This document shows, piece by piece, positions 1,581 through 31,890 of a stretch of DNA of 64,000 nucleotides. Origin of the DNA: a virus; IMG/VR virus record IMGVR_UViG_3300045988_162923; one strand, given 5' to 3'. Below the pieces are notes generated by a model. That model had not been told where the DNA came from, searched no databases, and saw only the letters and a list, made by a program, of their open reading frames with translations. A program made the translations under genes and the position numbers. Position 1 is the first letter of the stretch. Each line of letters begins with the position of its first letter.

Positions 1581-1609
1581 ATTATATCATAAAATTTTTA
1601 TAAAATCAA
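1581..1609 (-). promoter_or_regulatory. Sigma70-type consensus promoter (minus strand): TTGATT-17 nt-TATAAT with TGn extended -10
   Basis: Reverse complement of 1581-1609 reads TTGATTTTATAAAAATTTTATGATATAAT. Member of a >15-copy near-identical promoter family. Confidence 0.6.
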
Positions 1610-1613
1610 AAAT

Positions 1614-1690
1614 TGGCACTTCATTGAGGACTCGAACCTCAAACCCTCTAATTAGAAATCAGATGCTCTCGTCCATTGAGCTAATGAAGT
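1614..1690 (-). tRNA. tRNA-Arg (anticodon UCU)
   Basis: Acceptor ACTTCAT/ATGAAGT, D stem GCTC/GAGC, anticodon stem TCTGA/TTAGA (one G-U) with loop TTTCTAA, T arm TGAGG-TTCGAGT-CCTCA, CCA encoded. Confidence 0.65.
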
Positions 1691-1777
1691 ATATACTAGA
1701 CATAATTAAATGGTACGTCATTTACTTTAAAAAAAATGGCAAAATATTTAATGTTTGCTGTTTATGCCTTTTTAATA

Positions 1778-1925
1778 TGGTAGGGCCGGTTGGATTCGAA
1801 CCAACGATTTGGCAATTTGGCCTAAGACGTTAGATTTGAACTTACATCTTTCTTGCGCACAGACTATTCTACCATTTAAACTAGTCTTAGATAAGTTGCC
1901 GGCCTTACCCCTTGGCCACGACCCC
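1778..1925 (-). tRNA. tRNA gene with a ~85-nt anticodon-loop insertion that itself is a CCA-terminated tRNA-like unit (nested tRNA-like element); mature anticodon unresolved
   Basis: Outer tRNA: GGGGTCG-T-GGCC-AAGGGGTAA-GGCC-G-GCAA(c) ... TTGCC-AAATC-GTTGG-TTCGAAT-CCAAC-CGGCCCT-A-CCA. Inserted unit: CTAAGAC...GTAAG-TTCAAAT-CTAAC-GTCTTAG-G-CCA, a perfect 7-bp acceptor-like helix plus T-arm-like hairpin. Confidence 0.45.
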
Positions 1926-1928
1926 ATA

Positions 1929-2525
1929 TTATTCTAAAATTATTTCCTAAGATAATTGAAATTTTTTACTATTTAAATATTTATAATTAGAAGTTAATGA
2001 ATGACAATTAGGACATAATAATTCTAAATTATCCAATTCATTATGGGTTTTATCTCCATCTTTATGATGAATTTCTAATGGACATTTACCAGTAATAGGA
2101 TTTATTTCTCCCCAACCACATTTCTAACACTTATTATCATATTTCTATAATAAATAAGATCTAATATTATCAGAAATTTTATAAGTATTACCAGTCTTTT
2201 TTAATCCATTTTCTTCACCATTATTAACTTTTTCAATATAAATATTTCTTTCATATTCTCGCTAGCATTTTATAGAACAATATTTATACTATCCTTTTTG
2301 AAGTTCTACTTTACAATTTAAGCAAAATTCTTCTTTAGGTTTTATTCTGTTTAAACATCCACAAGATTTAGTCTATCCTAAAGTTAAATGGCTAGTTTGA
2401 ATTTCTTTTTGATTACCACAATCACACTAACAAAGCCAATAAGTATTACCTTTACGACTTTCTACTTTTTTAAGTGCTACTAACTTTCCAAATCTTTGAC
2501 CTGTTATATCTAATGCTTTTGGCAT
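1929..2525 (-). CDS. HNH homing endonuclease with N-terminal Zn-ribbon DNA-binding repeat (RFGKL...YWLC-Q-CDCGN...SCGC); 6 in-frame TAG codons (recoded)
   Basis: Translation with TAG=Q gives ...LDNLELLCPNCHSLTS plus HHKDGDKTHNELDNLELLCPNCH, a classic HNH motif. The ORF is unreadable in the standard code. It abuts the 5' end of the insertion-containing tRNA at 1925. Confidence 0.7.
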
Positions 2526-2645
2526 ATTAAATTCTCCTTTAATTTAAAAATTTTTCTATTAAATATAAAATTTTAATTTACTGAATTAAAATTTTATGTC
2601 CAAAATTTTCAGCTCCTATTTTTTAAATTATTGGAGTATTTAATT

Positions 2646-2720
2646 GGGGTGACTGGTGGAAATTGAATCCACGACCTTCTGAGCCACAATCAGACGTTCT
2701 ACCAACTGAACTACAGCCAC
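2646..2720 (-). tRNA. tRNA-His (anticodon GUG)
   Basis: GTGGCTGTAGTTCAGTTGGTAGAAC...anticodon loop TTGTGGC...T arm GTGGATTCAATTTCCAC...CAGTCACCCCA. Close to the bacterial tRNA-His consensus. Confidence 0.7.
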
Positions 2721-2721
2721 A

Positions 2722-2798
2722 TGGCATCCCTTGAGAGACTCGAACTCCCAATCTTGTGATTCGTAGTCACACGCTTTATTCCATTAAGCTAAAGGGAT
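2722..2798 (-). tRNA. tRNA-Arg (anticodon ACG)
   Basis: Acceptor ATCCCTT/AAGGGAT, anticodon stem TGTGA/TCACA with loop CTACGAA, T arm GGGAGTTCGAGTCTCTC, CCA encoded. Confidence 0.65.
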
Positions 2799-2803
2799 AA
2801 ATT

Positions 2804-2889
2804 TGGTGCCGGTGGCGGGACTCGAACCCGCACGGTGTTGCCACCGAGGGATTTTAAGTCCCTTGTGTCTGCCATTCCACCACACCGGC
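2804..2889 (-). tRNA. tRNA-Leu (anticodon UAA), type II with long variable arm
   Basis: Acceptor GCCGGTG/CACCGGC, anticodon stem AGGGA/TCCCT with loop CTTAAAA, long variable arm, T-loop GGTTCGAGTCC, CCA encoded. Confidence 0.7.
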
Positions 2890-2930
2890 ATATAAGGGAG
2901 AGATTATTTATCTCTCAACCTTACATATAT

Positions 2931-2959
2931 ATTATATCATAAATTTTTTATAAAATCAA
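2931..2959 (-). promoter_or_regulatory. Consensus promoter TTGATT-17-TATAAT (minus strand), upstream of the His/Arg/Leu tRNA cluster
   Basis: Reverse complement reads TTGATTTTATAAAAAATTTATGATATAAT. Confidence 0.6.
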
Positions 2960-4074
2960 ACAAGATACTTCGTTGTAAAATCAGGAGTATTTTTCTGGAA
3001 AGTAACTTCTTTAATACTCTGAGACTCAGCCTTTTTAATTACAGCCTTGCGCTCATCTTCGTCTTCAATCTGCCAATAATCATCAGGATCAACATAAATC
3101 TTAGTATTTTCACCTTTGATATAAAGCTGTCCATCTCTAAAAGTGATTTTGCTAGGAATAATCGCAAACCGCAATCTATTATCACTCTTAGTATCATATG
3201 CGTCATACCATTCATAAGAAGTCTCAGCCAAATCAATATGACGACCATAAGTTGTATATACTTTACCAGAAGCGAGAGTAACTGTCATATTGAAAGTAAC
3301 AGAACTGCTCTGAGTAATATTAAGATCATTTAGAGTTTCTTCAAGGCTATAACCCTGATTAATTTCAAAAACAATAGCACGCAGATAATCATAAGTCATG
3401 TTAATTGTACGAGAGAAATTAACAATGGAATTAATTACTTCATAATAAGCTGGCAACAACTTATCTTTGAGATATTCTCTAATTTCATTTTCTGTTGGAT
3501 AATTAATCATAAAATGATAATGGAAACGACCGGGACGATTAAGAAGATACTCATTCAACTTACGGGTTTCATTACAAGTAATGACAAAAAGTTTCTTGCC
3601 ATTATCAAGTCCATCGAACAAAGAAAGCATTTCTTCCTGCGGATCACTATGCTCAACTTCGCCAAAAGTCTTTTCAAATTCATCAAAAATAACTACGACT
3701 TCCTGTTCAATAGAGCTAAGAAAATTAGCAATACCCGGAATATATTCATTAACAATGATTACCGGCAATCCATTTTCAATAGCCTTTGCCGCAAGGACGC
3801 GAGCAAATAGAGACTTGCCAATACCTTTCTGACCACTTAAAATAATACCAAAATTACGAGTTGAACACTTATAAGATTTAATTACTTTATTTACTTTTGC
3901 TTCATGATTACCGTAAATCTTTTCTTCATTAATCGACAAATCAGGACGAGAAACCAAGAAAAAGCCAGCCATTTTATTAAAGCTAACTTCAAAAGACATA
4001 GTTGGAAGACGCTTATATGTTTTTACATCTTCACCATAAATTTGAAATCGGCTGCCAGCATTAACAACATTCAT
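2956..4074 (-). CDS. AAA+ ATPase (Walker A GQKGIGKS, Walker B VVVIFDEFEK); standard code
   Basis: 372-aa ORF with no in-frame TAG. P-loop and DExx motifs visible. Embedded between tRNA clusters. Confidence 0.7.
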   Translation of the reverse strand: MNVVNAGSRFQIYGEDVKTYKRLPTMSFEVSFNKMAGFFLVSRPDLSINEEKIYGNHEAKVNKVIKSYKCSTRNFGIILSGQKGIGKSLFARVLAAKAIENGLPVIIVNEYIPGIANFLSSIEQEVVVIFDEFEKTFGEVEHSDPQEEMLSLFDGLDNGKKLFVITCNETRKLNEYLLNRPGRFHYHFMINYPTENEIREYLKDKLLPAYYEVINSIVNFSRTINMTYDYLRAIVFEINQGYSLEETLNDLNITQSSSVTFNMTVTLASGKVYTTYGRHIDLAETSYEWYDAYDTKSDNRLRFAIIPSKITFRDGQLYIKGENTKIYVDPDDYWQIEDEDERKAVIKKAESQSIKEVTFQKNTPDFTTKYLV

Positions 4075-4099
4075 AATTTATATTATCCTTTCTTTCTGT

Positions 4100-4190
4100 T
4101 GGCGCTGGGGGTGGGATTCGAACCCACGGGAGTAATTAGCTCACACAAGTTTTCAAGACTAGGCGCTTATGACCACTTGCGCACCCCAGC
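4100..4190 (-). tRNA. Type II tRNA, probably tRNA-Ser (anticodon UGA) - anticodon stem has one mismatch
   Basis: Acceptor GCTGGGG/CCCCAGC, long variable arm, T-loop GGTTCGAATCC, CCA encoded. Anticodon-loop candidate CTTGAAA. Confidence 0.5.
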
Positions 4191-4367
4191 ATATTCAATT
4201 ACTAGACTCGCAGGACTAGAAAATAAATATTAGAAAAGCAAATAAATCACTTTCCTTATTGAAATACAAAGTTTGTCCAATTACTTACTTTAGATTTTCA
4301 TAATATTTCATCTATCTATTATTAGAAAATATTATTAGTAGTAAATTTTTGCAGTTATCAAGTCTAA

Positions 4368-4459
4368 TGGCGCGGAGGGAGAGATTCGAACTCTCGGACC
4401 GGGTTGCCCCGGTCAAGGGATTAGCAATCCCCCGCACTCGGCCTCTATGCGACCTCCGC
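4368..4459 (-). tRNA. tRNA-Ser (anticodon GCU), type II
   Basis: Acceptor GCGGAGG/CCTCCGC, anticodon stem GGGGA/TCCCT with loop TTGCTAA, long GC-rich variable arm, T-loop GAGTTCGAATCTC, CCA. Confidence 0.7.
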
Positions 4460-4727
4460 ATATATGAAAAATAGAGAGTAAAAAAACGATTTGCTTTACA
4501 GAAAGAGGAGAGAAAACAAAACATGACCACCCATCGAAAGGATGCAAAACAGGAAGTTAAAGAAAAACATAAAACAAACTAGATGTAAAAAACTCTCTCT
4601 ATTGAATAGTTTTTTGTTCCTATATATTCAAATATATAGAAAAGAGTAGTCCTTATTCTTTCAAAGGAATCCCAGCAGCCATACAACATCATTATTCCTA
4701 TATGGATCCTCTCGTGCTGTTCTTCAA

Positions 4728-4804
4728 TGGTGGGCAGAGAAGGTACCGACCCTTCACCCTCTGGTTTTTCAGACCAGTGCTCAGACCTCATAAGCTATCT
4801 GCCC
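4728..4804 (-). tRNA. tRNA-Phe (anticodon GAA) with a non-canonical T-loop (GTCGGTA instead of TTCRANN)
   Basis: Acceptor GGGCAGA/TCTGCCC-A-CCA, D stem GCTT/GAGC (one G-U), anticodon stem CTGGT/ACCAG with loop CTGAAAA, T stem GAAGG/CCTTC. Confidence 0.5.
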
Positions 4805-5150
4805 ATAGAGACAAAAAACAAGACACAATTACTTTCAAATATCATTAGAAATATTTAATGGCTGTTTGTGTCTTTTAATCAATTATAAAGCTATTTAAAT
4901 GTACTTAACCGACTTATTAAAATCACTAGACGTAAAAAGATAATATATAGGACTCGAACCTATTCGTTTTAATTTGCAATTAAAATGTGAAACCAAATCA
5001 CGAAAATTATTCTTAAAGAATATTTGCTGAATACGTCTAACATTATAATGCCTTAGAAGAAACGCAACATCTAAGGACTTACATATTATATTTTATGAAC
5101 AAAATAAGACAATCAAATGAAAAATTGGAGACTGTTCAAATGAATTGAAC

Positions 5151-5224
5151 TGGTTGCGGTCGGCGGAATCGAACCGCGTCTCCGGGTTATGAGCCCAGTA
5201 TCCTACCGTTAGAAGACCACCGCA
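5151..5224 (-). tRNA. tRNA-Met/fMet (anticodon CAU)
   Basis: Anticodon stem CTGGG/CCCGG with loop CTCATAA, T-loop GGTTCGATTCC, CCA encoded. Acceptor has one mismatch. Confidence 0.6.
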
Positions 5225-5225
5225 A

Positions 5226-5302
5226 TGGTGCCTGCCTTTGGATTCGAACCAAATATCTCTAGGGTATGAGTCTAGCGCTTGTTCCTCATAAGCTCCACAG
5301 GC
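5226..5302 (-). tRNA. Second CAU-anticodon tRNA (Met or Ile2-lysidine type); imperfect stems
   Basis: Loop CTCATAC flanked by CTAGA/CCTAG, T arm TTTGGTTCGAATCCAAA, CCA encoded. Adjacent to the other CAU tRNA (typical Met/fMet/Ile2 trio in phages). Confidence 0.5.
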
Positions 5303-5409
5303 ATATTTAATTGTGATGGTTATAAAACTTAATCTAATGCAGGCATCAGACTAATAGAACGCTCCATCAAGTTCTATGCTTCAAAATCGCTTATATCGGG
5401 AAAAGCGAA

Positions 5410-5486
5410 TGGCGATGCTAAGGGGACTCGAACCCCTGACCTTCGGAGAGACAGTCCGACATTCTAGCCAACTGAACTATAGCACC
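5410..5486 (-). tRNA. tRNA-Asp (anticodon GUC)
   Basis: GGTGCTATAGTTCAGTTGGCTAGAAT...stem TCGGA/TCCGA with loop CTGTCTC...T-loop GGGGTTCGAGTCCCC...CCA. Confidence 0.6.
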
Positions 5487-5489
5487 ATA

Positions 5490-6169
5490 TGGTCAGCGCA
5501 AGGGGGATCGAACCCCTACATTCTACCTTTGGTGTTAAGTATAAGATTTGAACTTACATCTTTTCGTACTCTTCTTTTAATCGTTTTATATTTTTACCAT
5601 TTGTAGTATCTAATTGTTGATTGCAATTAGGACAAACCCATCGAAGATTTTCTAATCTATCATCATGATTATGACCATTGACATGATCTAAAATCAAAGT
5701 CAGAGGTTTATCCTACCAAAAAGGTTCTTGCCCGCAAATAGAACATATATAAGGAGTATATTCTCCTTGTAAATAATATTTTCTTAATATTTTCTAATCT
5801 GCGGTAGAATTTTCAATAAAGATATTAGATGGATTTCGTTTTATAGGACGTCTATTTCCTAAAGAAAAATGGTCAGTTGATATATTCAACTAATCTATTC
5901 TTTTTCTAATACGAGTTCCATTATCTCCACTATGAGAACTATATCCTAATTTCTTAGCAACTTCTGCCATAGAACCACTGGATATTACAATTTCTTTAAA
6001 CTATTCATTAGTAAAAGTATCAATTTTTGCTGGCATTTTAAAAATCTCCTATCATTTTTTCTATTATATTTGATTTTTAAGACGCCATCCTTAAAAGAAA
6101 GTGTCCAAAATATTCTTCTTAAACTAACCTAACGAAAGGGTAGTGACTATACCTATTTGTCTATGCGCC
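5490..6169 (-). tRNA. tRNA gene split by a ~610-nt anticodon-loop insertion that contains a complete HNH endonuclease gene plus a tRNA-like mini-helix
   Basis: 5' half CGGCGCA-TA-GAC..GTC-A-CTACC-(ctttcgt...) at 6113-6169. 3' half (..ccaaa)-GGTAG-AATGT-AGGGG-TTCGATC-CCCCT-TGCGCTG-A-CCA at 5490-5530. Anticodon stem CTACC/GGTAG and acceptor CGGCGCA/TGCGCTG pair. The loop begins with the same CTTTCGT as the 539-679 insertion-tRNA. Confidence 0.45.
5554..6036 (-). CDS. HNH homing endonuclease (LDHVNGHNHDDRLENLRWVCPNCN), 4 in-frame TAG codons (recoded); located inside the tRNA anticodon-loop insertion
   Basis: MPAKIDTFTNE-Q-FKEIV... with HNH motif H-x-NGHNHDD...N...CPNC. Continuous only with TAG as sense. 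Confidence 0.65.
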
Positions 6170-6238
6170 GTTAAAAATGTGGGACTTTTGGCGGGAGGCT
6201 CCCACGGGACCTCAGCCTTTTGGTGGTGTAAAAGGCAT

Positions 6239-6314
6239 TGGTGACCCCAGACGGATTCGAACCGCCATCTTAACCTTGAGAGGGTTACCACCTAGCCAAT
6301 TAGTAGATGGGGCC
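6239..6314 (-). tRNA. tRNA-Glu (anticodon CUC) - tentative
   Basis: Acceptor GGCCCCA/TGGGGTC, anticodon stem TAACC/GGTTA with loop CTCTCAA, T-loop GCGGTTCGAATCCGTC, CCA. Confidence 0.55.
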
Positions 6315-6317
6315 AAA

Positions 6318-6500
6318 TTAATTATCAGAAACTAAATTTCTTGACTTTTCTTTTTCTTGTGCGCGTTCATATTTCATTCCCTTACCTTTTTTCGCAGGAG
6401 TTCGAGAACCGCGCCGTTTAAACATCATATATTCTTGAAGTTCATCAGGGCTTTTCTTAAAGATGCGTCTATCAATTTTCTTCTTGGTATTCATTTCCAT
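6318..6500 (-). CDS. Small basic protein (60 aa, K/R-rich)
   Basis: ORF from the track. Composition plausible for a nucleic-acid-binding peptide. No homology claim. Confidence 0.3.
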   Translation of the reverse strand: MEMNTKKKIDRRIFKKSPDELQEYMMFKRRGSRTPAKKGKGMKYERAQEKEKSRNLVSDN

Positions 6501-6618
6501 ATTCCTCCTTCATAAGTCTACACCATTCAAGGAACTGCCATTCAAATTCATCGGATTGGATTTGAGTATCAAAGTCATTGAACATCTTTTTAAATTCCTT
6601 TCTTAACTTTGTAAAAAT

Positions 6619-6648
6619 ATTATATCATATTTTTTTAAAAATGTCAAA
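6619..6648 (-). promoter_or_regulatory. Consensus promoter TTGACA-17-TATAAT (minus strand)
   Basis: Reverse complement reads TTGACATTTTTAAAAAAATATGATATAAT. Confidence 0.6.
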
Positions 6649-6673
6649 AAGAATTTAATATGCTAAATCCTTT

Positions 6674-6757
6674 TGGTGCTCAGAGTGGGACTTGAACCCA
6701 CACGTCTTTCGACAATCGGGTTTGAGCCGATCGCGTCTGCCATTCCGCCACCAGAGC
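6674..6757 (-). tRNA. tRNA-Leu (anticodon CAA), type II
   Basis: Acceptor GCTCTGG/TCTGAGC (one mismatch), anticodon stem ATCGG/CCGAT with loop CTCAAAC, long variable arm, T-loop GGGTTCAAGTCCC, CCA. Confidence 0.65.
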
Positions 6758-7087
6758 ATATCACATTTCGGCGGTTCCGGACCCGCCAAGGCAGTATCAC
6801 CTTAAATAACTTTTATGTCCCCTCTTAAAAAGTCATTCACAAAAAAGCTGGCTTTATGGTTAAGCCTTACCCTCTTTTCCATTTTTCCTTTTGCGTAAAG
6901 CAGTCCAAACAATCAAAAGAGTAAGCATAAAAGATAGCTCCAAGTGATTTATAGACTAACTTGATAAGTCTCGCAGCATCACATATTTTCCAAGTAACTA
7001 ATAAGGTTTAGCTGCCATTTTTCATAAATATAATCTATAATAATAATCCTATATTACATTATGGGCGATTATCATTCCCGTTCTAAT

Positions 7088-7165
7088 TACCATTACCTCA
7101 TTTGGATTCGAACCAAAAACTCCACCCTCTACTGGGCGGCGTGTTTCCATTACACCATAAGGCTT
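7088..7165 (-). pseudogene. tRNA-like sequence with intact T-arm but unpairable acceptor/anticodon stems and no U33 (probable tRNA pseudogene or non-canonical tRNA)
   Basis: T arm TTTGG-TTCGAAT-CCAAA present. Anticodon region CAGTAGA/AGTAGAG ambiguous. No CCA. Confidence 0.25.
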
Positions 7166-7230
7166 ATTAGCAACTTATTTACATAACGATGGAGTTGCCA
7201 ACCACCGGATAGTACAAAGATATCGGCTTA

Positions 7231-7306
7231 TGGTACCGGCGAAAGGACTCGAACCTTCAGATTAATGATCCTAAATCATTCGCCTATGCCATTCGGCTAC
7301 ACCGGT
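7231..7306 (-). tRNA. Type I tRNA with anticodon UAG (would decode CUA, a Leu codon, despite lacking the long variable arm of bacterial tRNA-Leu)
   Basis: Acceptor ACCGGTG/CGCCGGT (one G-U), anticodon stem AATGA/TCATT with loop TTTAGGA, 5-nt variable region AATCT, T arm GAAGG-TTCGAGT-CCTTC, CCA encoded. Confidence 0.55.
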
Positions 7307-7527
7307 ATATGGTGGAAAGAAGTATTTCACCTTTTATAGCGCGCTTCTCCCCGTTCCCGCGCTACCCCTCTCCCAATTAGCTTGATTATGAGAGGATTTT
7401 ACTATGAAGTTCATCATAGTTACCCGATTTCCCTTTGCCTCAGTTTATTTTTAATTGGTCTATTGCCAACGGCAGGTGACTAATCTACCTAGTTCAAACC
7501 GGAAACCCCATGTATAAGACCAATAAT

Positions 7528-7602
7528 GGCGGATACAGAAGGGCTCGAACCTTCGACCCACGGTTTAACAGACCGTTGCTCTGCCAACTGAGCTATGCAT
7601 CC
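7528..7602 (-). tRNA. tRNA-Asn (anticodon GUU)
   Basis: GGATGCATAGCTCAGTTGGCAGAGC...stem ACGGT/ACCGT with loop CTGTTAA...GGTTCGAGCCC...CCA. Confidence 0.7.
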
Positions 7603-7900
7603 ATATTAAATCGCCCTTTTCTTTAACGGTACTTCACAAGTAGGCTAACTCCCGACTTCCTCTTCAAGTTCCAACCAGAATTACTGATGCTCACTGTGTC
7701 TATTTTTCCTCCCATACAGTTTGGATGAATTTTATTTTAGATGACAAAAATAAAATTTAGTTTTAATTGGATTTCACCAAGGAGAGCTTTTTTGTTATTC
7801 GTTCTTTTCATCACTAAGTATGAAGCATCCATCACTCTCGCACAACGTCATCAGCAAGTTTATTGACTCCATCTGAACTGTCATAAAGAAAATTTTCATT
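7603..7900 (-). ncRNA. ~300-nt non-coding region between a consensus promoter (7921-7949) and tRNA-Asn; candidate structured ncRNA or long tRNA leader
   Basis: No ORF in either code. Contains a long A/T hairpin (AAATTTTATTTT...AAAATAAAATT). Transcribed from the promoter on its right. Confidence 0.25.
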
Positions 7901-7920
7901 TTCTTTCATTTGATATAAAT

Positions 7921-7949
7921 ATTATATCATATTTTTTATAAAAAATCAA
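7921..7949 (-). promoter_or_regulatory. Consensus promoter TTGATT-17-TATAAT (minus strand)
   Basis: Reverse complement reads TTGATTTTTTATAAAAAATATGATATAAT. Confidence 0.6.
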
Positions 7950-7989
7950 AAAAGATTTTTTAACTAAACAAAACAAGACAACTTTTTTA

Positions 7990-8065
7990 ATTACGCTGCT
8001 CTACCACTTGAGCTATCGTTTGTAAATTAATACGCACGAGTTGGACTCGAACCAACAACACACGG
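7990..8065 (-). ncRNA. Two juxtaposed tRNA fragments in non-cloverleaf order: a 3' half (T-arm + acceptor 3' strand, 8040-8065) followed by a 5' half-like piece (acceptor/D-arm AAACGATAGCTCAAGTGGTAGAGC, 7990-8030)
   Basis: T arm GTTGG-TTCGAGT-CCAAC-TCGTGCG on the minus strand directly after promoter and leader. D-arm consensus GCTCAAGTGGTAGAGC follows it. The two pieces cannot pair as one tRNA. Confidence 0.3.
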
Positions 8066-8126
8066 ATTACCAATCAATTTAAAAAATTAAAATTGCTGTA
8101 ATTGTCTTTCTTTATCTTACATATAT

Positions 8127-8155
8127 ATTATATCATAAATTTTTTATAAAATCAA
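8127..8155 (-). promoter_or_regulatory. Consensus promoter TTGATT-17-TATAAT (minus strand) followed by conserved leader AAGATAAAGAAAGACA
   Basis: Reverse complement reads TTGATTTTATAAAAAATTTATGATATAAT. Identical to the 2931 and 8388 copies. Confidence 0.6.
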
Positions 8156-8171
8156 AAAATAACTTTTTGAC

Positions 8172-8245
8172 TGGCAGGGGCGCTCCGACTCGAACGGAGA
8201 GTCCCGGTTTTGGAGACCGGTGGTTTACCATTAACCGACACCCCT
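8172..8245 (-). tRNA. tRNA-Trp (anticodon CCA)
   Basis: Acceptor AGGGGTG/CGCCCCT (one G-U), anticodon stem CCGGT/ACCGG with loop CTCCAAA, T-loop CCGTTCGAGTCGG, CCA encoded. Confidence 0.7.
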
Positions 8246-8271
8246 ATAAAATCAAGACTTATAAATTATTT

Positions 8272-8343
8272 TTCCAGAGCGTGGATTTGAACCACGGTCT
8301 TCAGGATTTTACTCTGATAGGCTATCCTCTACCCCACTTCGGA
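8272..8343 (-). tRNA. tRNA, anticodon unresolved (loop AGTAAAATC; 4-bp anticodon stem)
   Basis: Acceptor TCCGAAG/CTCTGGA (one mismatch), T arm CGTGG-TTCAAAT-CCACG. No encoded CCA. Confidence 0.45.
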
Positions 8344-8475: not shown

Positions 8476-9435
8476 TCAATATCTATCATAGTCTGTATAA
8501 GGAATTCTTAATAAAGGAATATTATTTTTTTTACAATATTTATCCTTCATTTTATCATGTTCAATAACTTTATCTGTATGCCATATACTTGATTGATTAA
8601 AATGCTATTTACCATCATATTCAATTAATTTTAAAACTTTTCCGTTATGATCTAAAATAGCAAAATCAAATCGTAAATAATTTTTATCTTTTAAATCATT
8701 AAAAGTATATTCCTAAATAAAAGAAATATTATTATTTATTAAAATTTTTTTTATTAAATTTTCTCCTAATGAATTCCCTATGCATCCACAGGACTAAGTA
8801 AGTCCCTATAATAGGCTTGATTGCCGAATACTTTTAATATTTCCACAATCACATTGACATACCCAATATGCCTTGTCTTTTTGTTCTTCATCTTTATGTA
8901 GAGCAATTAATTTACCGAATCTTCGTCCAACTAAATTTAATCTTTTAGATTGAATTCCTAAAGGCTAAATATTTTCTATCATATTTATTTTTGCTTTTTC
9001 TTTCTATAAACATCCACAAGACTGAGTATGTTCTGATTTTAAAGATGAAGTAGTAACATTTACAATATTTCCACAGTCACATTTACATTCCCAATAAGAA
9101 GCAGTATTATTTAATTCTTTTCGCTTTAAAATAGTATATTCTTTATTAAAAGATAATACTGTTAATTTACCAAATTTTTGTCCCGATAAATCATCATAAA
9201 AGCTCGGATTATCTTTACGATTTCGATTAATATTTCCTTTTAAACGATTCTCTTTTCCTAAACAACCGCAAGATAAAATTTTTCCATTACGCAAATCAGC
9301 ACCACGAATATTTTTTATTATCCCACAATCACACTAGCATTTCCATAAAAGCTTATTAGAATTATCATGTCCAGCTTCTTCTAAAACTATTAATCTACCA
9401 AAACGCTAATCTATTAAATTTATTTTTTTACCCAA
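8476..9435 (-). CDS. Homing-endonuclease-like protein: three Zn-ribbon repeats (RFGKL..W.C.CDCGN..SCGC) + C-terminal PD-(D/E)XK / DUF559-like nuclease domain (RFDFAI..IEYDGK-Q-HF); TAG-recoded; start approximate (TTG at 9435)
   Basis: ORF-track fragment 9004..9294 is the middle repeat. Full reading frame continuous with TAG=Q. TAG sits at the Q of the DGKQH motif, which is CAA in the paralogue at 22523-23323. Confidence 0.6.
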
Positions 9436-9448
9436 AAATAGACCTTCT

Positions 9449-9500
9449 TTCTGTTCTTCTTTTAATATTATTAAGAAATCTACTTAGAAGAAGAACAGAA
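9449..9500 (-). terminator. Hairpin (12-bp stem TTCTGTTCTTCT/AGAAGAACAGAA) + U-tract on minus strand; terminator after gene 9511-9807
   Basis: Perfect inverted repeat seen in sequence, followed on the minus strand by TCTATTTTT. Confidence 0.45.
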
Positions 9501-9808: not shown

Positions 9809-10546
9809 TTAACTTTCTCCTTTTTTTACAAGATATTTATCACTAAATATCATTTCTATTGTTATATTATTTTTTTCCCAATAAGGAATTCGAACAAGAG
9901 GAATATTATGTTCAAAAGCAAAATAATTTTTTATTAAATCAGATTGCTAAGTCCGTTCAAAAGATTCTCTTCCCCATTTAGCTGGCTTAAAATGCTATTC
10001 ACCATCAAATTCAACCAGTCTAATTAAATTATTATCTTTATCAAAAATAGCAAAATCATATCTTTTATTTTTTAATTCAGAAAATTTAAATTCTTTAGCA
10101 AAAGAAATATTATTTTCTTCTAAAATATCTATAATTTTCTATTCCCCTAAAGATATTCCATTTTTACATCCACAGCTGCTAGTATTTCCACTTCTTAATT
10201 CTGCCCCAGCAACAGATACGATATTTCCGCAATCACATCTACAAATCCATTTTACTTTTCCATTAATACTTTTTGATACTGTATCTTTATATAAAACAGT
10301 TAATTTACCATATTTATTACCAGTCTCATCTTTTCCAATTGCTTCAAAAACTTTTTCATTTCGTAAGCATCCACAACTTTTTGTTGCTCCATTTTTTAAA
10401 CTTAAAGCAGCAATACTTTTTTGATTCCCGCAACTACACTAACAAATCCAATATGTTCTATGATGCTTCTTAGAGGCTTCTTCATCTTTTTTTAAAACAG
10501 TTAATCGTGAAAAAACTTTTCCAATTAAATCTTCAGATTTTGGCAT
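9809..10546 (-). CDS. Homing-endonuclease-like protein: two Zn-ribbon repeats + DUF559-like PD-(D/E)XK domain ([21 protein letters not shown]); TAG-recoded
   Basis: [18 protein letters not shown]...YWIC-Q-CSCGN...SCGC. RBS AAGGAAGAATTTATATG. 4 in-frame TAGs. Confidence 0.6.
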
Positions 10547-10637
10547 ATAAATTCTTCCTTTCTCTATATCTTCTAATTATATTAAATTTTAAGATAAGAA
10601 AATTGAAAAATTTTGTCCATCTTTTTATCTAAAAATT

Positions 10638-12083: not shown

Positions 12084-13060
12084 TCAAGTAGGCCTCCTGC
12101 GCAATCATTACAAATTTTCTTAGGATTATTTGGATCAATTTCAAATGGTTCTCCACAATTATCGCACCATTCAATATTTTCTACCATACAATCAGGGCAG
12201 TAAAAACAAGTCTTACCATCTAATCCTTTCACAGGAAAGACCTCATAACCAGAAAATAATCCCTTACATTTCTTACAATGAACATAAAAATCATTATCAC
12301 CTGCGGCTCCATTACTATTATATAAATCTTGGAACCATCTTTTAGCAGATAAACTAAATTCAATATATTTAAAATCTGGGATAGATTCTTTTTGAAGCAT
12401 CTTTTTAACTTTTTCAATAGTATTTAAAAGAGCACTAATATTTAGAGTTTCAATATATGTGTGTTCATTTTCATAACCAACTGATAAATTTGTGCTACAA
12501 ACCTGCCAAGCTGGTCCTAAAATACTAATATCAGAAAAACTACCAAAATCTTCAATAAATCCAAAAGATTCAATATATGCTATAAAATCGTCATTATCAC
12601 ATGAATAGAATACACAATCATTTTTTCCTTGTCTATCCAATTCAATCATATACTTTAACTGCGGAAATGGACAATTCTCTTGAGCCAATACAGATGCTCC
12701 AATGCCGCCTTGTTCTTCATCAGTAGTAAAAATGATATGTGGACGCAAATTTGTAGAACGTAATATCTGAATAATCGCATATACGCCTGCTCGATCATCA
12801 GCTCCAAGGCCCTGCGGACTCCACATAACATTTTTTCTTGTATCATAATATAATTCAGAAACAGGTTTAGGAAAAACTGTATCCATATGGGCTACAAGAG
12901 CGATCGGAATATCACCGACGGCATAAATATAATCCGCAGTAGTTTTTACTGTTTTGTATTTACTCTGAAGAAAATAAGACATAGTTTTAAGTAAGCTGCC
13001 CTGTTTCATTTTAAATAGCTGCTCTAATGTCTCATATTCTTTTGCTTTCAACCCACGCAA
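12038..13060 (-). CDS. M42/M20-family metallopeptidase-like domain (HMDTV...GADDRAG...TDEEQG) fused to C-terminal zinc ribbons; standard code
   Basis: 340-aa ORF. Motifs typical of co-catalytic metallopeptidases. C-terminal CKKCKG..CFYCPDC..CDNCG..CNDC. Overlaps upstream gene by 46 nt. Confidence 0.55.
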   Translation of the reverse strand: MRGLKAKEYETLEQLFKMKQGSLLKTMSYFLQSKYKTVKTTADYIYAVGDIPIALVAHMDTVFPKPVSELYYDTRKNVMWSPQGLGADDRAGVYAIIQILRSTNLRPHIIFTTDEEQGGIGASVLAQENCPFPQLKYMIELDRQGKNDCVFYSCDNDDFIAYIESFGFIEDFGSFSDISILGPAWQVCSTNLSVGYENEHTYIETLNISALLNTIEKVKKMLQKESIPDFKYIEFSLSAKRWFQDLYNSNGAAGDNDFYVHCKKCKGLFSGYEVFPVKGLDGKTCFYCPDCMVENIEWCDNCGEPFEIDPNNPKKICNDCAGGLLECHSTSEKLKNNSMK

Positions 13061-13915: not shown

Positions 13916-13924
13916 ATTATATCA

Positions 13925-20886: not shown

Positions 20887-20915
20887 AGCTATTCTTTTGA
20901 ATAGCTTTGATTTTT
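20885..20915 (-). terminator. Hairpin terminator AAAGCTATTC-TTTT-GAATAGCTTT + T-run
   Basis: 10-bp perfect stem, just downstream (minus sense) of the lipoprotein gene. Confidence 0.5.
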
Positions 20916-22522: not shown

Positions 22523-23323
22523 TTATACAATATTATACATTGAACTTATTATTTCATTATAATTTAAATGAGACAAAGATGTATATGGAATACGCTTTAA
22601 AATAATATTATTCTTTTTACAATATTCATTTTTTAAATTATCTCTAAATTGAATATCTTCTAATGTGTCTTTAGTATGGCTCCAAGTATTTGTATCTGGT
22701 CCAGTATAATGTTGTTTACCATCAAATTCAATTAAATATTGTAGATTATCGTCTTTATCAAAAATAGCAAAATCAAAGCGTAATCTATAATTAGTTAATG
22801 GATTTCGTAAATCTGGAAAAGTATATTCAGTTTTATAATTTATATTATAATTATTTAATATATCTTTTATAATTTCTTCTCCTCGAGAAGAAATACACCC
22901 ACAAGAGATAATGGCTCCAGAATTTAAATCATTTCCTCGAATAGATTTAATATTTCCACAATCACACTAACAAATATACCAACTTTCATTTTTATCTCTA
23001 CTAGCCTGTTTTCTTAATCCTTCATACTTTATAACTACTAATTTACCAAATCTATCGCCAATCTAAATAGTTCTTTGATTTTCATTATACTTTTTCATTC
23101 GAGTGCTTGCTTTAATTCTATTCTAACATCCACATGATGGGTCTTTTGCTTTTGTAAAGTATGGCATTGCCATTGGTTTAATAGTCCCACAATCACATTT
23201 ACATACCCACATAGTTTGAGTTTTATTATTTACAGTACGATACAAAGCAGTTAAATGACCAAATCTCTAATTAGTTATATCTTTAGCTTGCCCTAAAGGT
23301 ATTTTTTTATATATTTTTTCCAT
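22523..23323 (-). CDS. Homing-endonuclease-like protein: two Zn-ribbon repeats + DUF559-like PD-(D/E)XK domain ([22 protein letters not shown]); TAG-recoded (4 TAG)
   Basis: MEKIYKKIPLGQAKDITN-Q-RFGHLTAL...WVCKCDCG...SCGC-Q-NRIK...YIC-Q-CDCGN. The DGKQHY here uses CAA for Q where paralogues use TAG. Inserted among standard-code early genes. Confidence 0.6.
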
Positions 23324-23402
23324 AATTTAATAATTACCTCCTATTATTTATATTATATATAAATAATAGGAGGTATCATTTAACCGTTTTTGTCCATGAA
23401 TG

Positions 23403-28185: not shown

Positions 28186-28196
28186 GCGGTTCCTCC

Positions 28197-28628: not shown

Positions 28629-28968
28629 AAATTAGGTAATTTTTCATAGTTTCTAATAAAAATATAAAATGGTCGTTTTAAATAAAAATGGTTAAAATTT
28701 TCTGATAAATGGTCAAAATTTTCTATATTTTTGTCCGAAAATTTCTATTGTTTTGGTCAAAAATTTCTATTAGTTGGTCATAAATAAGTGTTTAGAACCA
28801 AATTAGGTAATTTTTCATAGTTTCCTATTTTTATTTAAAGTGGATAAATTAGGTAAAATTTTTAGGTAATTTTTCATATGTTCCTCTTTTTATTTAAAAT
28901 TTTAGGTAATTTTTCATAGTTACTGATCGGGAAATCGAAGTGCTGATTAGGTAATTTTTCATAGTTCC
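28629..28968. repeat. Iteron array A: 5 direct copies of ~20-bp TTAGGTAATTTTTCATAGTT
   Basis: Copies at ~28631, 28803, 28862, 28902, 28948. Three more copies at 29676-29755 on the other side of the recoded wHTH gene. Confidence 0.6.
28669..28790. repeat. Iteron array B: ~5 direct copies of TGGTCAAAA(A)TTTTCTAT (degenerate)
   Basis: AATGGTCGTTTTAAAT / AATGGTTAAAATTTTCTGAT / AATGGTCAAAATTTTCTATAT / TTGTCCGAAAATTTCTATTG / TTGGTCAAAAATTTCTATTAG. Confidence 0.5.
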
Positions 28969-29028
28969 CTATTTTTATTTAGTTGGGTAAAAATCGTTAA
29001 TTTTACCTATTTAGATTTTAAATAAAGT

Positions 29029-29682
29029 ATGAAAGGAGGCAATATTAAATTGGCTGAAGATAAAAAACGCTTTCCGGCGAATACTACTATGGAAGTTCTT
29101 ACTTTTTTAAATGATAAAAAAATTAATGGTGAGTTATATGCTTATTTATAGACTTTATCTACTTATGAAGTAATAGATAAAGATAATAATTTATTTAGAA
29201 CTTTTGTGTTAAAGAAATCATTACCTTCATAGTCTTAGATATGTAAGACATTAGGTATCAAAAGCCCCAAGACTTATAAATCACATTTAAGTTATTTAAT
29301 TGAGTAGGGTTATGTTATTGAAGAAGAAGATAAATATATGTTACCTGAAATGGAGAATATATATTTTTTAATTCCATTAAAGACTTTATAGTATATAAAT
29401 GATAACTGTAAAGAGCATATTATAAAGATTTATGTATATCTTGGTTAGAGATATAAATGGGCATTGGAACGAGGAATATAGTATGAATTTACTTTAAAAG
29501 AGTTAGGGGAACATAGTGGTATTAAAGTAGAGAATAATACTCGTGGTTATGAAATTGTTAATAATGCTTTAACATTTTTATGTAATTCTGAATTAATAGA
29601 TTATGTTAGTTTTTTTGATGGTAAAAGTTAGAAGAAGCGATTAACGAAATTTTGCTTTGATTATAAAGATTTAGTTAGGTAA
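29029..29682 (+). CDS. Winged-helix DNA-binding protein (217 aa) flanked by iterons; candidate replication initiator or regulator; 8 in-frame TAG codons (recoded)
   Basis: ATG at 29029 (or TTG at 29050 after AAGGAGG). Translation ...LKELGEHSGIKVENNTRGYEIVNNALTFLCNSELIDYV... continuous only with TAG as sense. Ends TAA at 29680. Confidence 0.5.
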
Positions 29683-29755
29683 TTTTTCATACCCACTTTA
29701 GGTAATTTTTCATAGTTGCTTCGTATTAAATTAGGTAAAAAATCATAGTTTATCT
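29676..29755. repeat. Iteron array A, right-hand copies (3 copies of GGTAATTTTTCATAGTT variant)
   Basis: Copies at ~29676, 29700, 29733. Confidence 0.55.
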
Positions 29756-29861
29756 AAGTAATAAGTAATATAAGTAGGGATGGTATAGGCTTTAAATGTC
29801 CCTTCGGGCCATTTAAATCCTATACAAGACTTTTTTCGAGGGAGTTAAGGGAGGAATAATA

Positions 29862-30128
29862 ATGGTAATAGATGGTAAAGTAGTAAATGAATTAAAGCAC
29901 TGTGGATTAAAGTTATATTTATTTTTAAGTTGCTTTTATAATGAATAGGAATGGATAGTAAATCCGTAGGAATATGCTAATTGGTTAAATATAGATTATA
30001 AAGTAAAAAGTAGAACAGTTAGAAAATCTATGAATGATGCTATTATTAATTTAATTGAATGTGGATATATGAAAATAATAGATGAAGATAAATATTATTT
30101 TTCAATAGATAAATTAAAGGAGAAATAA
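29862..30128 (+). CDS. Small wHTH-like protein (88 aa), 2 in-frame TAG (recoded)
   Basis: RBS GGAGGAATAATAATG. MVIDGKVVNELKHCGLKLYLFLSCFYNE-Q-EWIVNP-Q-EYANWL... Confidence 0.45.
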
Positions 30129-30129
30129 A

Positions 30130-30399
30130 ATGATACAATTAGATGAAAATAAATTAAGTGATTCAACAATAATGAATATAGGATTAGATTTAGGTATTTA
30201 TCCATATGATGATGAAGGTATTAAAGCATATAGATAGAGAATAATTGGATATATAAATCCAACCGCATTATGTAAAGAAAGTTAGAAAACATATAATATA
30301 TATACAGATGGTAATCCTAATGCTTGGTTAGATGGATATAATACAGCTAAATATAGTATGTATGATTATTACCATGAAGTATATGGTGATGAGTTATAA
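30130..30399 (+). CDS. Small hypothetical protein (89 aa), 2 in-frame TAG (recoded)
   Basis: RBS AAGGAGAAATAAAATG. ATG overlaps the previous stop. Confidence 0.4.
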
Positions 30400-30533
30400 G
30401 AGTGTATTTGATTTATATTTATAATTATGTTATAATATAAATATAATAAGAAAGGAGTAAGGAACATCCTATATAATGAGGGCATTTTAATGCCCGAGTT
30501 GAAAATTTAAAGGGACCCTTAGAGAAAATTGAA

Positions 30534-30899
30534 ATGGAATTTTGCTATGAAACTTTAAAGGATAATGATGAAAGAGTAGGCACTTATAAAGGATTGCCTG
30601 TATATGCTCTTTCTACTTATAATTATAAAGATTATGATGATATGGTCTTTATTATGTATGATGATGGCATGAAGCTTGTTTATAAGGGCTTTGTTGTTGG
30701 TACTATTCAGCGTGATGGTGGTATTAAGTCGGTAAGTCAATATAGATATACTCCTAAAAAGAAAGGCGCAGTAGTGCCGCAGTCTATGGGTGATATTCTT
30801 TATGATAAGCATGAATGTATGTTAGAAGATAAGCATACTCTCGCAGAAGCTATGATTAAAGAATATAGTGCTTTGAGTATTGATGATTTGTTAAGATAA
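30534..30899 (+). CDS. Hypothetical protein (121 aa), standard code
   Basis: ORF from the track. Followed immediately by a strong bidirectional terminator. Confidence 0.5.
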   Translation: MEFCYETLKDNDERVGTYKGLPVYALSTYNYKDYDDMVFIMYDDGMKLVYKGFVVGTIQRDGGIKSVSQYRYTPKKKGAVVPQSMGDILYDKHECMLEDKHTLAEAMIKEYSALSIDDLLR

Positions 30900-30905
30900 A
30901 AAAAA

Positions 30906-30935
30906 TAACCGCTGAAATAGCGGTTATTTTTTTTA
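30906..30935. terminator. Bidirectional rho-independent terminator (TAACCGCT-GAAAT-AGCGGTTA, A-run left, T-run right)
   Basis: 8-bp GC-containing stem with T9 on plus and A9 on the left. Confidence 0.65.
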
Positions 30936-31012
30936 TTTAATTGTAATACAAAGCAAGGTAGTAGAAAGAATAAAATTGAAAGGATGGAGGTTGTTCCTCA
31001 CTTTGTAATTAT

Positions 31013-31041
31013 ATTATATAATAAATTTTTTCTTTTGTCAA
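31013..31041 (-). promoter_or_regulatory. Consensus promoter TTGACA-17-TATAAT (minus strand) firing toward the 30906 terminator (~100-nt transcript, no ORF)
   Basis: Reverse complement reads TTGACAAAAGAAAAAATTTATTATATAAT. Confidence 0.45.
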
Positions 31042-31432
31042 GATTTTGTTAAGAATTTTTTATAAGTGTTAATTGTGCGGGAGGGCATTCGGCAATTCCT
31101 TCTCTATTGGATCATAAGCTTGAAATAGTTTATTTGATTGCTATTGGATTAGTGGGAGAGAGATAAAAATATAGGAATTATATAGGAAGAAAGATTATAG
31201 AGGTAATAAGAATTATAATGAATTGTAGATAGCTATAGAAAATTGTGGGGAAACTGTGGAAGTGTCGTGCCGATCGGTCCTATACAATTATCTCAACAAT
31301 CCATCCTCATCGTCACCGTAATAAAAATAAAAAAAAGAGTGAAACTCAACGTTTCACTCTTTAATATCTCGATTTCTATTCAGATTTCCAATTCTTAGGA
31401 TGAAAATTGTCCCACCCGAAGAAGTGTCCGTT

Positions 31433-31810
31433 TTAATCTACGAATACCTTCAAAAAGTCCGAAATTGCCTTATCCGAAGTCTTAGCAGTCGTGCGCGCAG
31501 AAGCACCCTTGTCATCATACTTCTCCATGACCTCAATCAAAGGCATAACGGCCTCAATAGTATCAAGGAACTGATCGGTCAGGCTGGTCATTTCATCGGT
31601 AGTACAAGTGTCATCTACATCAAAATACTCCAATAGCAGATTCACGAGATCAGTTGCCTTTTCATTGATAGCCGTGCGCAGGTTAGTCTTATCATCCTGT
31701 TCCTTGGTCTCCTGGACTGCCTCATTCAGAGTCTTAGCCATTTCATCTGCGATAGACTGAGCGTCCTCACCCTTAGCAAGACGAGCAATAATATCTTCCT
31801 TAGTAAACAT
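31433..31810 (-). CDS. Acidic hypothetical protein (125 aa)
   Basis: ORF from the track. Promoter 31862-31890 upstream, hairpin terminator ~31330-31362 downstream. Confidence 0.5.
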   Translation of the reverse strand: MFTKEDIIARLAKGEDAQSIADEMAKTLNEAVQETKEQDDKTNLRTAINEKATDLVNLLLEYFDVDDTCTTDEMTSLTDQFLDTIEAVMPLIEVMEKYDDKGASARTTAKTSDKAISDFLKVFVD

Positions 31811-31861
31811 ATATGTTACCTCTTTATCTAATAGTAAAGTGATCTCTCACTTTCTAAATAT

Positions 31862-31890
31862 ATTATATCATTTTTTTTTATAAATGTCAA
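31862..31890 (-). promoter_or_regulatory. Perfect consensus promoter TTGACA-17-TATAAT (minus strand)
   Basis: Reverse complement reads TTGACATTTATAAAAAAAAATGATATAAT. Confidence 0.6.

Follow-up and report, generated by a model that had tools for sequence, protein, structure and literature searches.

The stretch of viral DNA considered here (64,000 nucleotides (nt) of the IMG/VR record IMGVR_UViG_3300045988_162923; hereafter "the window") carries a repeated, promoter-like cassette of ~60 base pairs (bp), which we call class A and which recurs between 1.5 and 32 kb. From left to right, the window contains an array of tRNA genes (539-8343, minus strand), a series of minus-strand operons, an array of 30 promoters of a second type, class B (32145-47703, minus strand), a divergent promoter pair, P50582 (-) and P50689 (+), which occupies 50582-50717 on both strands and marks the boundary of the non-structural and structural arms, and a plus-strand late arm (50739-63741). 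The repeat family very probably represents host sigma-A promoters, for which use in the early or middle phase is the best reading of the sequence. When two pieces of the window, 20 kb each, were compared by megablast with GenBank phages, no match was returned. At the protein level, the AAA ATPase encoded at 2956-4074 shows 39-48% identity to proteins of Enterococcus, Brochothrix, Bacillus and Lactococcus phages, and the capsid-like protein encoded at 59415-60368 is 51.6% identical to a protein of phAss-1, a phage filed under "Caudoviricetes code 15 clade".

Scanning the whole window with the degenerate motif TTGAYW-N14-TGNTATAAT, with at most one mismatch allowed, yielded 52 matches, compared to 0.60 +/- 0.86 expected; 48 of the 52 lie on the minus (gene-bearing) strand and all are intergenic. 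The 29-mer TTGATTTTATAAAAAATTTATGATATAAT (minus-strand reading) gave five matches at up to three mismatches, with none expected in shuffled sequences. The repeated motif described in the first-pass annotation of this DNA is thus genuine, and all 17 sites listed there were found, two of them at corrected positions (13937 instead of 13925 and 22183 instead of 22184). The number of copies, given there as more than 20, comes to about 20 between 1581 and 31890, namely 19 on the minus strand and one on the plus strand (30408); the minus-strand set includes two copies beyond the earlier list, at 31013 and 31941, the latter (31941-31969) extending slightly past the end of that range. A spacer of exactly 17 bp followed by TATAAT is found in 19/19 minus-strand class-A copies. 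The -35 hexamer is TTGATT in 13 of them and TTGACA in six, while the TG of the postulated extended -10 is present in 11 and absent from the remainder, the consensus being TATG or TGTG; this is the TG, or Gram-positive TRTG, -16 element reportedly defined by Voskuil and Chambliss in 1998. The complete cassette consists of TTGATT or TTGACA, a spacer in which a T-tract is followed by an A-tract ending in TRTG, the TATAAT hexamer, an ATATAT discriminator, a predicted start at R, and a purine-rich stretch of the first 15 nt. A Shine-Dalgarno (SD)-led start codon or an RNA gene follows in the same orientation 15-55 nt downstream of the -10; in copies leading protein genes the SD and the start codon form the 3' end of the cassette, and six copies lead tRNAs or small RNAs instead. 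With the exception of the boundary promoter P50689, no cassette was found inside the 13-kb structural arm of the window. The 17-bp spacing, the TG/TRTG and TATAAT elements, the co-orientation with genes, the short distance to SD-led starts and RNA genes, and the absence from the structural arm all agree with the sigma-70/sigma-A promoter anatomy proposed earlier. The "maximal strength" attributed to these promoters is doubtful, because most of the -35 hexamers are TTGATT, which matches the consensus at four of six positions.

Six class-A promoters, all on the minus strand, are located in the tRNA array, which comprises 19 genes identified by ARAGORN and two by Rfam alone; promoters in this region directly adjoin tRNA 3' ends. 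P1581 (1581-1609; TTGATT-17-TGATATAAT) adjoins the 3' end of tRNA-Arg and is predicted to drive a tRNA-like small RNA and then tRNA-Ile, P2931 (2931-2959) tRNA-Leu, tRNA-Arg and tRNA-His, P6619 (6619-6647; TTGACA) an open reading frame (ORF) of 60 amino acids (aa) and then more tRNAs, P8127 (8127-8155), 16 nt past tRNA-Trp, another tRNA-like small RNA, and P8388 (8388-8416) a helix-enclosed "tRNA-Phe(AAA)" and then tRNA-Trp; P7921 (7921-7949) comes from the motif scan. Further to the right on the same strand, P13097 (13097-13125; TTGACA) heads an operon of a peptidase-like gene (12038-13060) and the gene 10638-12083, P13937 (13937-13965; class-A type, TTGACA, without TG) heads the gene 13112-13921 with two in-frame TAGs, and P16607 (16607-16635) heads the gene 14665-16566, which has 634 codons between stops and four in-frame TAGs. 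P14543 (14543-14571) and P14640 (14640-14668) stand in tandem, and the 62-nt transcript segment from the latter that precedes P14543 folds as a hairpin (z = -4.5). Operons of three, four and three genes are headed by P18644 (18644-18672), P20858 (20858-20886) and P22183 (22183-22211), respectively, the last one including a DUF5052 gene, whereas P26374 (26374-26402) heads about ten genes over 4.1 kb and P28567 (28567-28595) five. The plus-strand copy (30408-30436) heads the gene 30534-30899. On the minus strand again, P31013 (31013-31041) would drive an ORF-less 102-nt transcript (30905-31006) that ends in a terminator, and P31862 (31862-31890; TTGACA) heads the gene 31433-31810, with P31941 in tandem 79 nt upstream. 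Thus, some 34 genes at 8.4-32 kb share 13 promoters, in units of one to about ten, and the earlier picture of one promoter per early gene does not hold; the "insulated monocistronic units" do not describe 1.5-32 kb and fit the neighboring class-B array at 32-48 kb.

Two side observations concern the right end of this region. The P31013 transcript combines an 11-bp 5' stem with an intrinsic terminator (fold z-score -5.2) and is a candidate small RNA. At 28650-30530 there is a plus-strand island, with a flip of the G+C skew, which contains a 219-codon frame with eight in-frame TAGs (29026-29682, plus strand) and is otherwise without ORFs, at 27% G+C.

Of the 19 promoters, each of which was said earlier to be accompanied by a hairpin terminator, five are abutted by a strong hairpin (16607, 18644, 20858, 22183 and 26374). 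All of these lie on the minus strand: a hairpin of 15 pairs at 16634-16669, found by the terminator scan, whose T-run is the TTGATTTTT of P16607; hairpins of 11, 13 and 15 bp adjoining P18644 (18673-18699), P22183 (22212-22241) and P26374 (26403-26435), respectively; and a hairpin at 20878-20915 that overlaps the -35 of P20858. Two further minus-strand terminators are detached from promoters, one at 14045-14070, ~80 nt upstream of P13937, and one at 31334-31362, which ends the P31862 unit. Among 321 unique cassettes of the clade, a hairpin is found at a distance of up to 2 nt in 40, compared to 3.9% at random positions, and within 20 nt in 80. The share of abutting hairpins differs with the start of the cassette, at 30/158 for TTGATT+TTT versus 10/163 for the others.

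The leader AAGATAAAGAAAGACA, according to the first-pass annotation a companion of many promoters, is much rarer: the 16-mer occurs exactly in two (1581 and 8127), with one mismatch in two (8388 and 18644) and with three mismatches in one (14640). What is conserved is a looser purine-rich start, ATATAT-R-TAAGATAAAGAAAG. We rejected the idea that this start serves as a stand-alone, ribosome-docking 5' stabilizer of the STAB-SD or SP82 type, because on its own it pairs with the tail of 16S rRNA at just -4.4 kcal/mol, compared to -6.9 kcal/mol for an arbitrary purine run. With a 16S rRNA tail that ends in CCUCCUUUCU, the SD AGAAAGGAG pairs at -13.4 kcal/mol, and the conserved start acts as an SD only if GGAG follows. 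The term "early" is also too narrow as a description of class A, although early use is part of the best reading, because class-A promoters head the two TAG-containing genes 13112-13921 and 14665-16566, and because those of phAss-1 extend over its entire replication and nucleotide-metabolism arm.

The second type of promoter, class B, begins with TTGACAAA; a spacer rich in G+C and TGnTA(T/C)AAT come next, and then a leader, for example ATCAAAAGAAAGGAATTGATACAATG. It is present in roughly one copy per small gene, i.e. in ~30 promoters for ~35-43 genes. The cores start at 32145, 32648, 33329, 34301, 34515, 35559, 36019, 36335, 36779, 37603, 37851, 38482, 39481, 39573, 40149, 40911, 41040, 42938, 43509, 44096, 44337, 44613, 44993, 45399, 45782, 46052, 46525, 46909, 47192 and 47675. 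The -35 is TTGACA in the 30 copies save for TTGACT at 38482, and TG is present in nearly all. The G+C content of the class-B block is 38-46%, compared to 27-38% in the class-A and tRNA stretch to its left. About five of the 30 promoters have a G+C-rich hairpin that carries the -35 TTGACAAA in its loop and has its 3' arm within the spacer; this was dropped as a general design of class B, since it concerns a minority of 4-6/30 (helix of at least 5 bp, p = 0.008). As another side observation, promoters stand face to face, ~45-50 nt apart around a G+C-rich core, at 43425-43537, 45715-45810, 34678-34728 and 31941-32173, and in phAss-1 at 499 and 132917. These pairs belong to a repeated module of ~200 nt, which in addition includes a TTTGTGTATTTTGCC(A/T)AT(A/T)GACA box and another promoter whose -35 is TAGACA; its plus-strand promoter would yield an antisense RNA of ~110 nt ending at a bidirectional terminator, and the module is conserved in phAss-1.

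Alignment of the window with two relatives of ~94% identity (loci L048 and L049) allowed homology breakpoints to be mapped. In the class-B block, 18/28 and 18/26 breakpoints lie within 50 nt of a promoter core, versus ~6.5 expected (p <= 5e-5). As for class A, 1.4 kb of DNA is inserted in the window, relative to the related locus L017, directly past the predicted transcription start of P26374, and an insertion of 1.08 kb ends 16 nt upstream of P8388.

The phage is TAG-recoded (genetic code 15), a point missed by the first-pass annotation. If TAG is read as sense, the ORF content of the plus-strand arm from 50.7 kb onwards rises from 2485 to 4312 aa; the late arm then resolves into 12 contiguous reading frames with 46 in-frame TAGs, has TAA at 11/11 of the stops that were checked, and contains no sigma-A-type promoter, while under code 11 it appears fragmented. 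Matches to PHROG families (terminase, portal and a "sigma factor" family) run across the TAGs once these are sense codons. The minus-strand genes mostly fit the standard code, with TAG in frame in 13112-13921, 14665-16566 and several homing-endonuclease-like genes. Among side observations, P50689 heads a 354-aa ORF (50689-51806, plus strand) with three in-frame TAGs, which matches PHROG 5767, "sigma factor" (E = 1e-52). A TAG-gated late sigma factor acting as a conserved timer was considered but rejected and stays a speculation, as the ORF has neither a Pfam sigma domain nor a homolog in phAss-1. TAG-rich ORFs of code 15 also occupy A+T-rich, seemingly ORF-less stretches of the minus strand (8476-9483, 9809-10576, 22523-23326, 1929-2543 and 5554-6051); they carry repeated zinc-ribbon-like CxCDCG...SCGC modules, with an HNH motif in 1929-2543 and 5554-6051, and resemble homing endonucleases. 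Three of them (8476-9483, 9809-10576 and 22523-23326) coincide with insertions absent from the close relatives L017, L019 and L023.

In the relative L051, whose ATPase is 99% identical to that of the window, the cassette P15409 precedes first tRNA-Val and then the suppressor tRNA(CTA) at 15696-15770, which starts 258 nt past the -10. Suppressor tRNAs number 43 in the loci of the clade; a same-strand cassette lies within 1.8 kb upstream of 37/44, and in 12 of those the distance is 57-258 nt. The tRNA array of the window has peculiarities of its own. Its tRNA-Gln(TTG) (539-679, minus strand) contains a 66-nt insertion within the anticodon (580-645) that is absent from L051, and is called by ARAGORN as tRNA-Glu with an intron. 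At 1-460 (minus strand), homology to the tRNA-Tyr of L051 ends inside the anticodon loop at 420, which suggests a larger insertion running off the window. Two odd minus-strand tRNAs are unlikely to be ordinary decoders: one at 7093-7164 with an 8-nt anticodon loop (ARAGORN "gtag"), and the "tRNA-Phe" with anticodon AAA at 8272-8343, which lies inside a leader-trailer helix. In the related contig L002 (IMGVR_UViG_3300021255_000109), the tRNA array includes, at 3098-3399 and 4082-4706, a transfer-messenger RNA and a ROOL RNA (341 bits).

The leader, too, has a second role that had been missed: its "GACA" end is one strand of a covarying RNA helix that encloses tRNA-like small RNAs. In the ~140-nt RNAs behind P8127 and P1581 (7975-8120 and 1433-1574, minus strand), the nucleotides at about +13 to +21 pair with the 3' end: AGACAAUU at +14 to +21 with the 3'-end AGUUGUCU in the former, and GACAGU with ACUGUC in the latter. 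According to RNAfold and the cmscan alignments, the interior of both comprises a T-arm and then a D-arm-like element. The loci of the clade contain 172 boxes of the form A-R-G-R-C, 3-9 variable bases, NCAGCAA, 134 of which have a G-Y-C-TTG motif downstream, at a median distance of 86 nt. In these 134 units, 3.12 of four variable positions pair, versus 1.97 +/- 0.07 with shuffled partners, and the R/Y position (GRC/GYC) covaries (A-T 100, G-C 28, G-T 4, A-C 2). Cassettes leading RNA genes carry the CAGCAA box in 34% of cases, compared to 7% for all other cassettes. The helix does not serve to enclose suppressor tRNAs, an option we rejected after inspection of 137 helix units (AAGRC-N...ACAGCAA ... 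N-GYCTTG) drawn from loci L001-L102: 120 of them contain no tRNA callable by ARAGORN, none contains tRNA(CTA), and one contains tRNA(TCA).

Beyond the window, the exact 30-mer TGATATAATATATATGTAAGATAAAGAAAG, which spans the -10 and the start, retrieves 38 IMG/VR loci on contigs of 9-402 kb with mostly unrelated flanks, where it is located upstream of protein genes or tRNA-like sequences. In 87 further cassettes from the same loci, not selected for the leader, information extends from an A-run near -45 through the spacer and the ATATAT discriminator to about +16, with up to ~1.2 bits per position in the spacer and 0.4-1.4 bits from +1 to +16. Seventeen related genomes with at least six cassettes each share the consensus TTGATT TTTT..AAAAAA.TATG. 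TATAAT ATATAT-R-TAAGATAAAGAAAG, and among them the identity of the spacer is 0.73 within genomes versus 0.62 between genomes. phAss-1 contains ~24 class-A-like sites of the form TTGACA-TAAAAAAATTTTTRTGN-TATAAT-ATATATAGAAARTGAG along its replication and tRNA arm and ~15 class-B-like TTGACAA promoters with G+C-rich spacers at the genome ends, while its structural arm has just two pattern matches, both on the strand opposite to the genes. The phAss-1 spacer begins with TAAAAA, and several of its hairpins bring their own T-run. The spacer is an A/T palindrome in both phages (TTTTATAAAA in the window, AAAAATTTTT in phAss-1).

Based on these comparisons, we consider it likely that the cassettes are promoters for the RNA polymerase of the host carrying its primary (sigma-A type) factor, and that they start transcription of the non-structural arm. 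The host holoenzyme would recognize the -35, TG and -10 elements and initiate at the R ~7 nt past the -10. Fast opening and escape would be favored by the discriminator, which is rich in A+T, and by the purine-rich start, which is free of structure; both would lead directly into the SD AGAAAGGAG. At a cassette where an upstream operon terminates, the predicted hairpin adjoins the -35, so that TTGATTTTTT would double as the U-tract of the terminator, and the outcome may be a compact terminator-promoter junction. The class-B cassettes appear to coincide with the sites at which gene cassettes are swapped between close relatives. The class-A promoters probably also set the time at which the suppressor appears, because the late genes read TAG as sense and the tRNA(CTA) of relatives lies just downstream of cassettes.

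Several observations weigh against this interpretation or some part of it. In addition to the partial agreement of most class-A -35 hexamers with the consensus, already mentioned, a hairpin is present at just about a quarter of the cassettes. No suppressor tRNA(CTA) is found in the window, because the tRNA array runs off its left end. The breakpoint result for class B is confounded: whole-gene replacement would yield the same pattern, because intergenic space and cassette coincide there. Class-A breakpoints near a cassette amount to just 2/16, which is not significant (p = 0.13-0.28), and the notion of breakpoints at terminator/promoter cassettes in the class-A region, of the type known from T4-like phages, was therefore dropped. 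Finally, clade-wide conservation includes the spacer and the transcribed start, beyond what sigma-A needs, which leaves room for an additional factor.

Such a factor is the subject of the alternative that fares best, according to which the cassettes are sigma-A promoters that also carry, on the T/A spacer or in the first 15 bases, an operator for a phage protein (repressor, activator or RNA polymerase modifier), with class A as a separately timed (delayed-early or middle) class apart from B. It is compatible with the promoter interpretation, and we regard it as a tentative possibility. Positions with no sigma-A contact, in the spacer and from +1 to +16, are conserved throughout the clade, the spacers are A/T-palindromic in both the window and phAss-1, the two promoter classes occupy separate genome blocks in both phages, and class-A promoters also head TAG-containing genes. 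On the other hand, no candidate regulator was identified, the sequence of the spacer differs between phAss-1 and the clade of the window while its A+T-richness persists, so that composition or DNA shape could explain it, part of the T-run can be put down to its shared use by the terminator, and spacer identity within genomes is just modestly above that between genomes.

According to a second alternative, which we consider unlikely, the near-identity of the cassettes is mainly historical, a product of duplication, gene conversion and cassette recombination (the concerted evolution proposed for the T4-type cassettes), with selection acting on the -35, TG and -10 only. The occurrence of identical 29-mers within the window, the higher identity within than between genomes, the class-B breakpoints at cassettes, and the two insertions that border P26374 and P8388 would all fit this scenario. 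However, the same consensus of spacer and start is found in genomes whose ATPases are 44-59% identical and whose flanks are unrelated; its retention across diverged genomes implies purifying selection, and breakpoints are not enriched at class-A cassettes.

An extended form of the promoter interpretation, which we find unlikely as it stands, would make the class-A cassette, in this clade of TAG-recoded phages, the control point of a switch of the genetic code: sigma-A would fire the tRNA arrays, tRNA(CTA) and the helix-enclosed RNAs, with the spacer and start acting as operator or RNA signal for a phage factor. The cassettes would then time the translatability of TAG-containing genes, including some that are headed by class-A promoters themselves and the sigma-like gene behind P50689. 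That the repeat is no promoter at all, and instead represents ends of mobile elements or sites of replication, packaging or recombination, is very unlikely: the copies are indeed short, near-identical and dispersed, and some lie at insertion boundaries, but 48/52 are co-oriented with genes and all are intergenic, the conserved positions are the -35, TRTG and -10 at 17-bp spacing, each copy is succeeded, a fixed short distance further on, by an SD with its start codon or by an RNA gene, and there are neither paired inverted ends nor target duplications, nor copies in the structural arm.

The placement of the host among Bacillota rather than Bacteroidota, first proposed from the type of promoter and SD, is supported by several lines of evidence, among them the fit of the SD AGAAAGGAG to a 16S rRNA tail ending in CCUCCUUUCU. 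The ATPase and the capsid-like protein match phages of Enterococcus, Bacillus and Brochothrix. The cassette occurs in six contigs assigned to metagenome-assembled genomes, and five of the six bins are Bacillota (Eubacteriales, Bacillota, Lachnospiraceae, Selenomonadaceae and Acutalibacteraceae). The predicted host of phAss-1 belongs to Eubacteriales (Babkin et al. 2023, PMC10607447).

Strong consensus early promoters by themselves are ordinary phage biology, and the kind of element described here is already known; its presence in TAG-recoded, phAss-1-like phages is undescribed as far as we could find, and a literature search for the motif string returned nothing relevant. We hope that our analysis will nonetheless be useful as a promoter and operon map for the widespread, uncultured large phages of gut and rumen that reassign TAG, in which the type of promoter and SD is an independent pointer to a Bacillota host and the 30-mer is a simple sequence tag that retrieves dozens of related contigs. 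The onset of the code switch becomes a testable question, because one close relative and several further contigs have a suppressor tRNA directly behind a cassette. Worth pursuing are the conservation of spacer and start, the connection with suppressor tRNAs, and the tRNA-like RNAs that the helix encloses.

With regard to known systems, the early promoters of T4 and T5 have an extended conserved consensus, and strong T5 promoters such as N25 have purine-rich initial transcribed regions. The window resembles these phages in its many near-identical promoters for the host RNA polymerase, in conservation beyond the hexamers (A+T-rich surroundings and the initial transcribed sequence), and in the presence of tRNA clusters within the same arm. 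It differs from them in the Gram-positive-type TRTG -16 element, the TTGATT -35, and the sequences of the spacer and the start.

The closest counterpart is phAss-1, a proposed Phassvirus whose description makes no mention of promoters (Babkin et al. 2023, PMC10607447). Like the window, it reads TAG as sense in late genes, has large tRNA arrays with tRNA-Sup(CTA), and shows the same two promoter classes with the same layout in separate genome blocks. The two phages differ in that their proteins are ~50% identical and no nucleotide match is found by megablast, in G+C content (44.5% in phAss-1 versus 28-36% across most of the window, with up to 46% in the class-B block), and in the spacer (TTTTATAAAAAAT in the window, TAAAAAAATTTTT in phAss-1). 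The class-B block can in turn be compared to SPO1's host-takeover module, which, according to the account of Stewart et al. 1998 given in PMC6873191, groups 26 genes into fewer operons. Judging from that account, each is a series of small genes whose promoters and ribosome-binding sites are of the kind expected for strongly expressed early genes, while class B has ~30 promoters for its ~35-43 genes; the equivalent block of phAss-1 is located at the genome ends, and the likeness is known here from layout, not from protein homology.

The helix-closed RNAs behind P8127 and P1581 recall the Y RNA-like tRNA mimics of bacteria known as YrlA (Chen et al. 2014, PMC4201824; Rfam RF02553), with which they share a helix that closes the RNA by joining its 5' and 3' ends, as well as the succession of T-arm, looped "acceptor" and D-arm-like element, both aligning to the model over its full length. 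Membership in this family was rejected: the scores for 7975-8120 and 1433-1574 are 38.2 and 26.9 bits against a threshold of 69, and both RNAs lack the Rsr-binding motif GNCGAAN0-1G, in place of which they carry a conserved ACAGCAA box. No match to YrlA at threshold was found in eight related loci, and no Ro60/TROVE match was found among the large ORFs scanned, a scan that did not cover every ORF.

A further parallel is that with the promoter-early stem-loop (PeSL), a composite terminator/promoter cassette of T4-type phages, where it is found at junctions between gene cassettes that have been swapped (Arbiol et al. 2010, PMC2839356; Comeau et al. 2014, PMC4122927). In both cases a unit of ~50-60 bp is repeated, which is rich in A+T upstream, has a near-consensus sigma-70 promoter, and ends on its 3' side with an SD and start codon, while the stem-loop directly before the promoter is enriched but confined to a minority of the cassettes studied here; in both, the units are dense among clustered small variable genes and coincide with insertions, deletions and replacements between close relatives. 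The differences are that the stem-loop is present at just about a quarter of class-A cassettes, that many hairpins in the clade of the window use the -35 and spacer as U-tract while about 5/30 class-B promoters have the -35 in a loop, and that the class-A cassette extends into a conserved transcribed start and also heads tRNA and small-RNA genes. PeSLs have been described in T4-type myoviruses of Gram-negative hosts (PMC2839356; PMC4122927), whereas the phage of the window comes from an unrelated, TAG-recoded and phAss-1-related group, probably with a host among Bacillota. The cassettes of the window are thus an analog of the PeSL outside the described set rather than a member of it, because the phage has its closest relatives in phAss-1 and in Enterococcus and Bacillus phages, and the class-B array extends beyond the T4-type phages the idea behind the PeSL, namely that the sites where genes are swapped are marked by shared regulatory cassettes.

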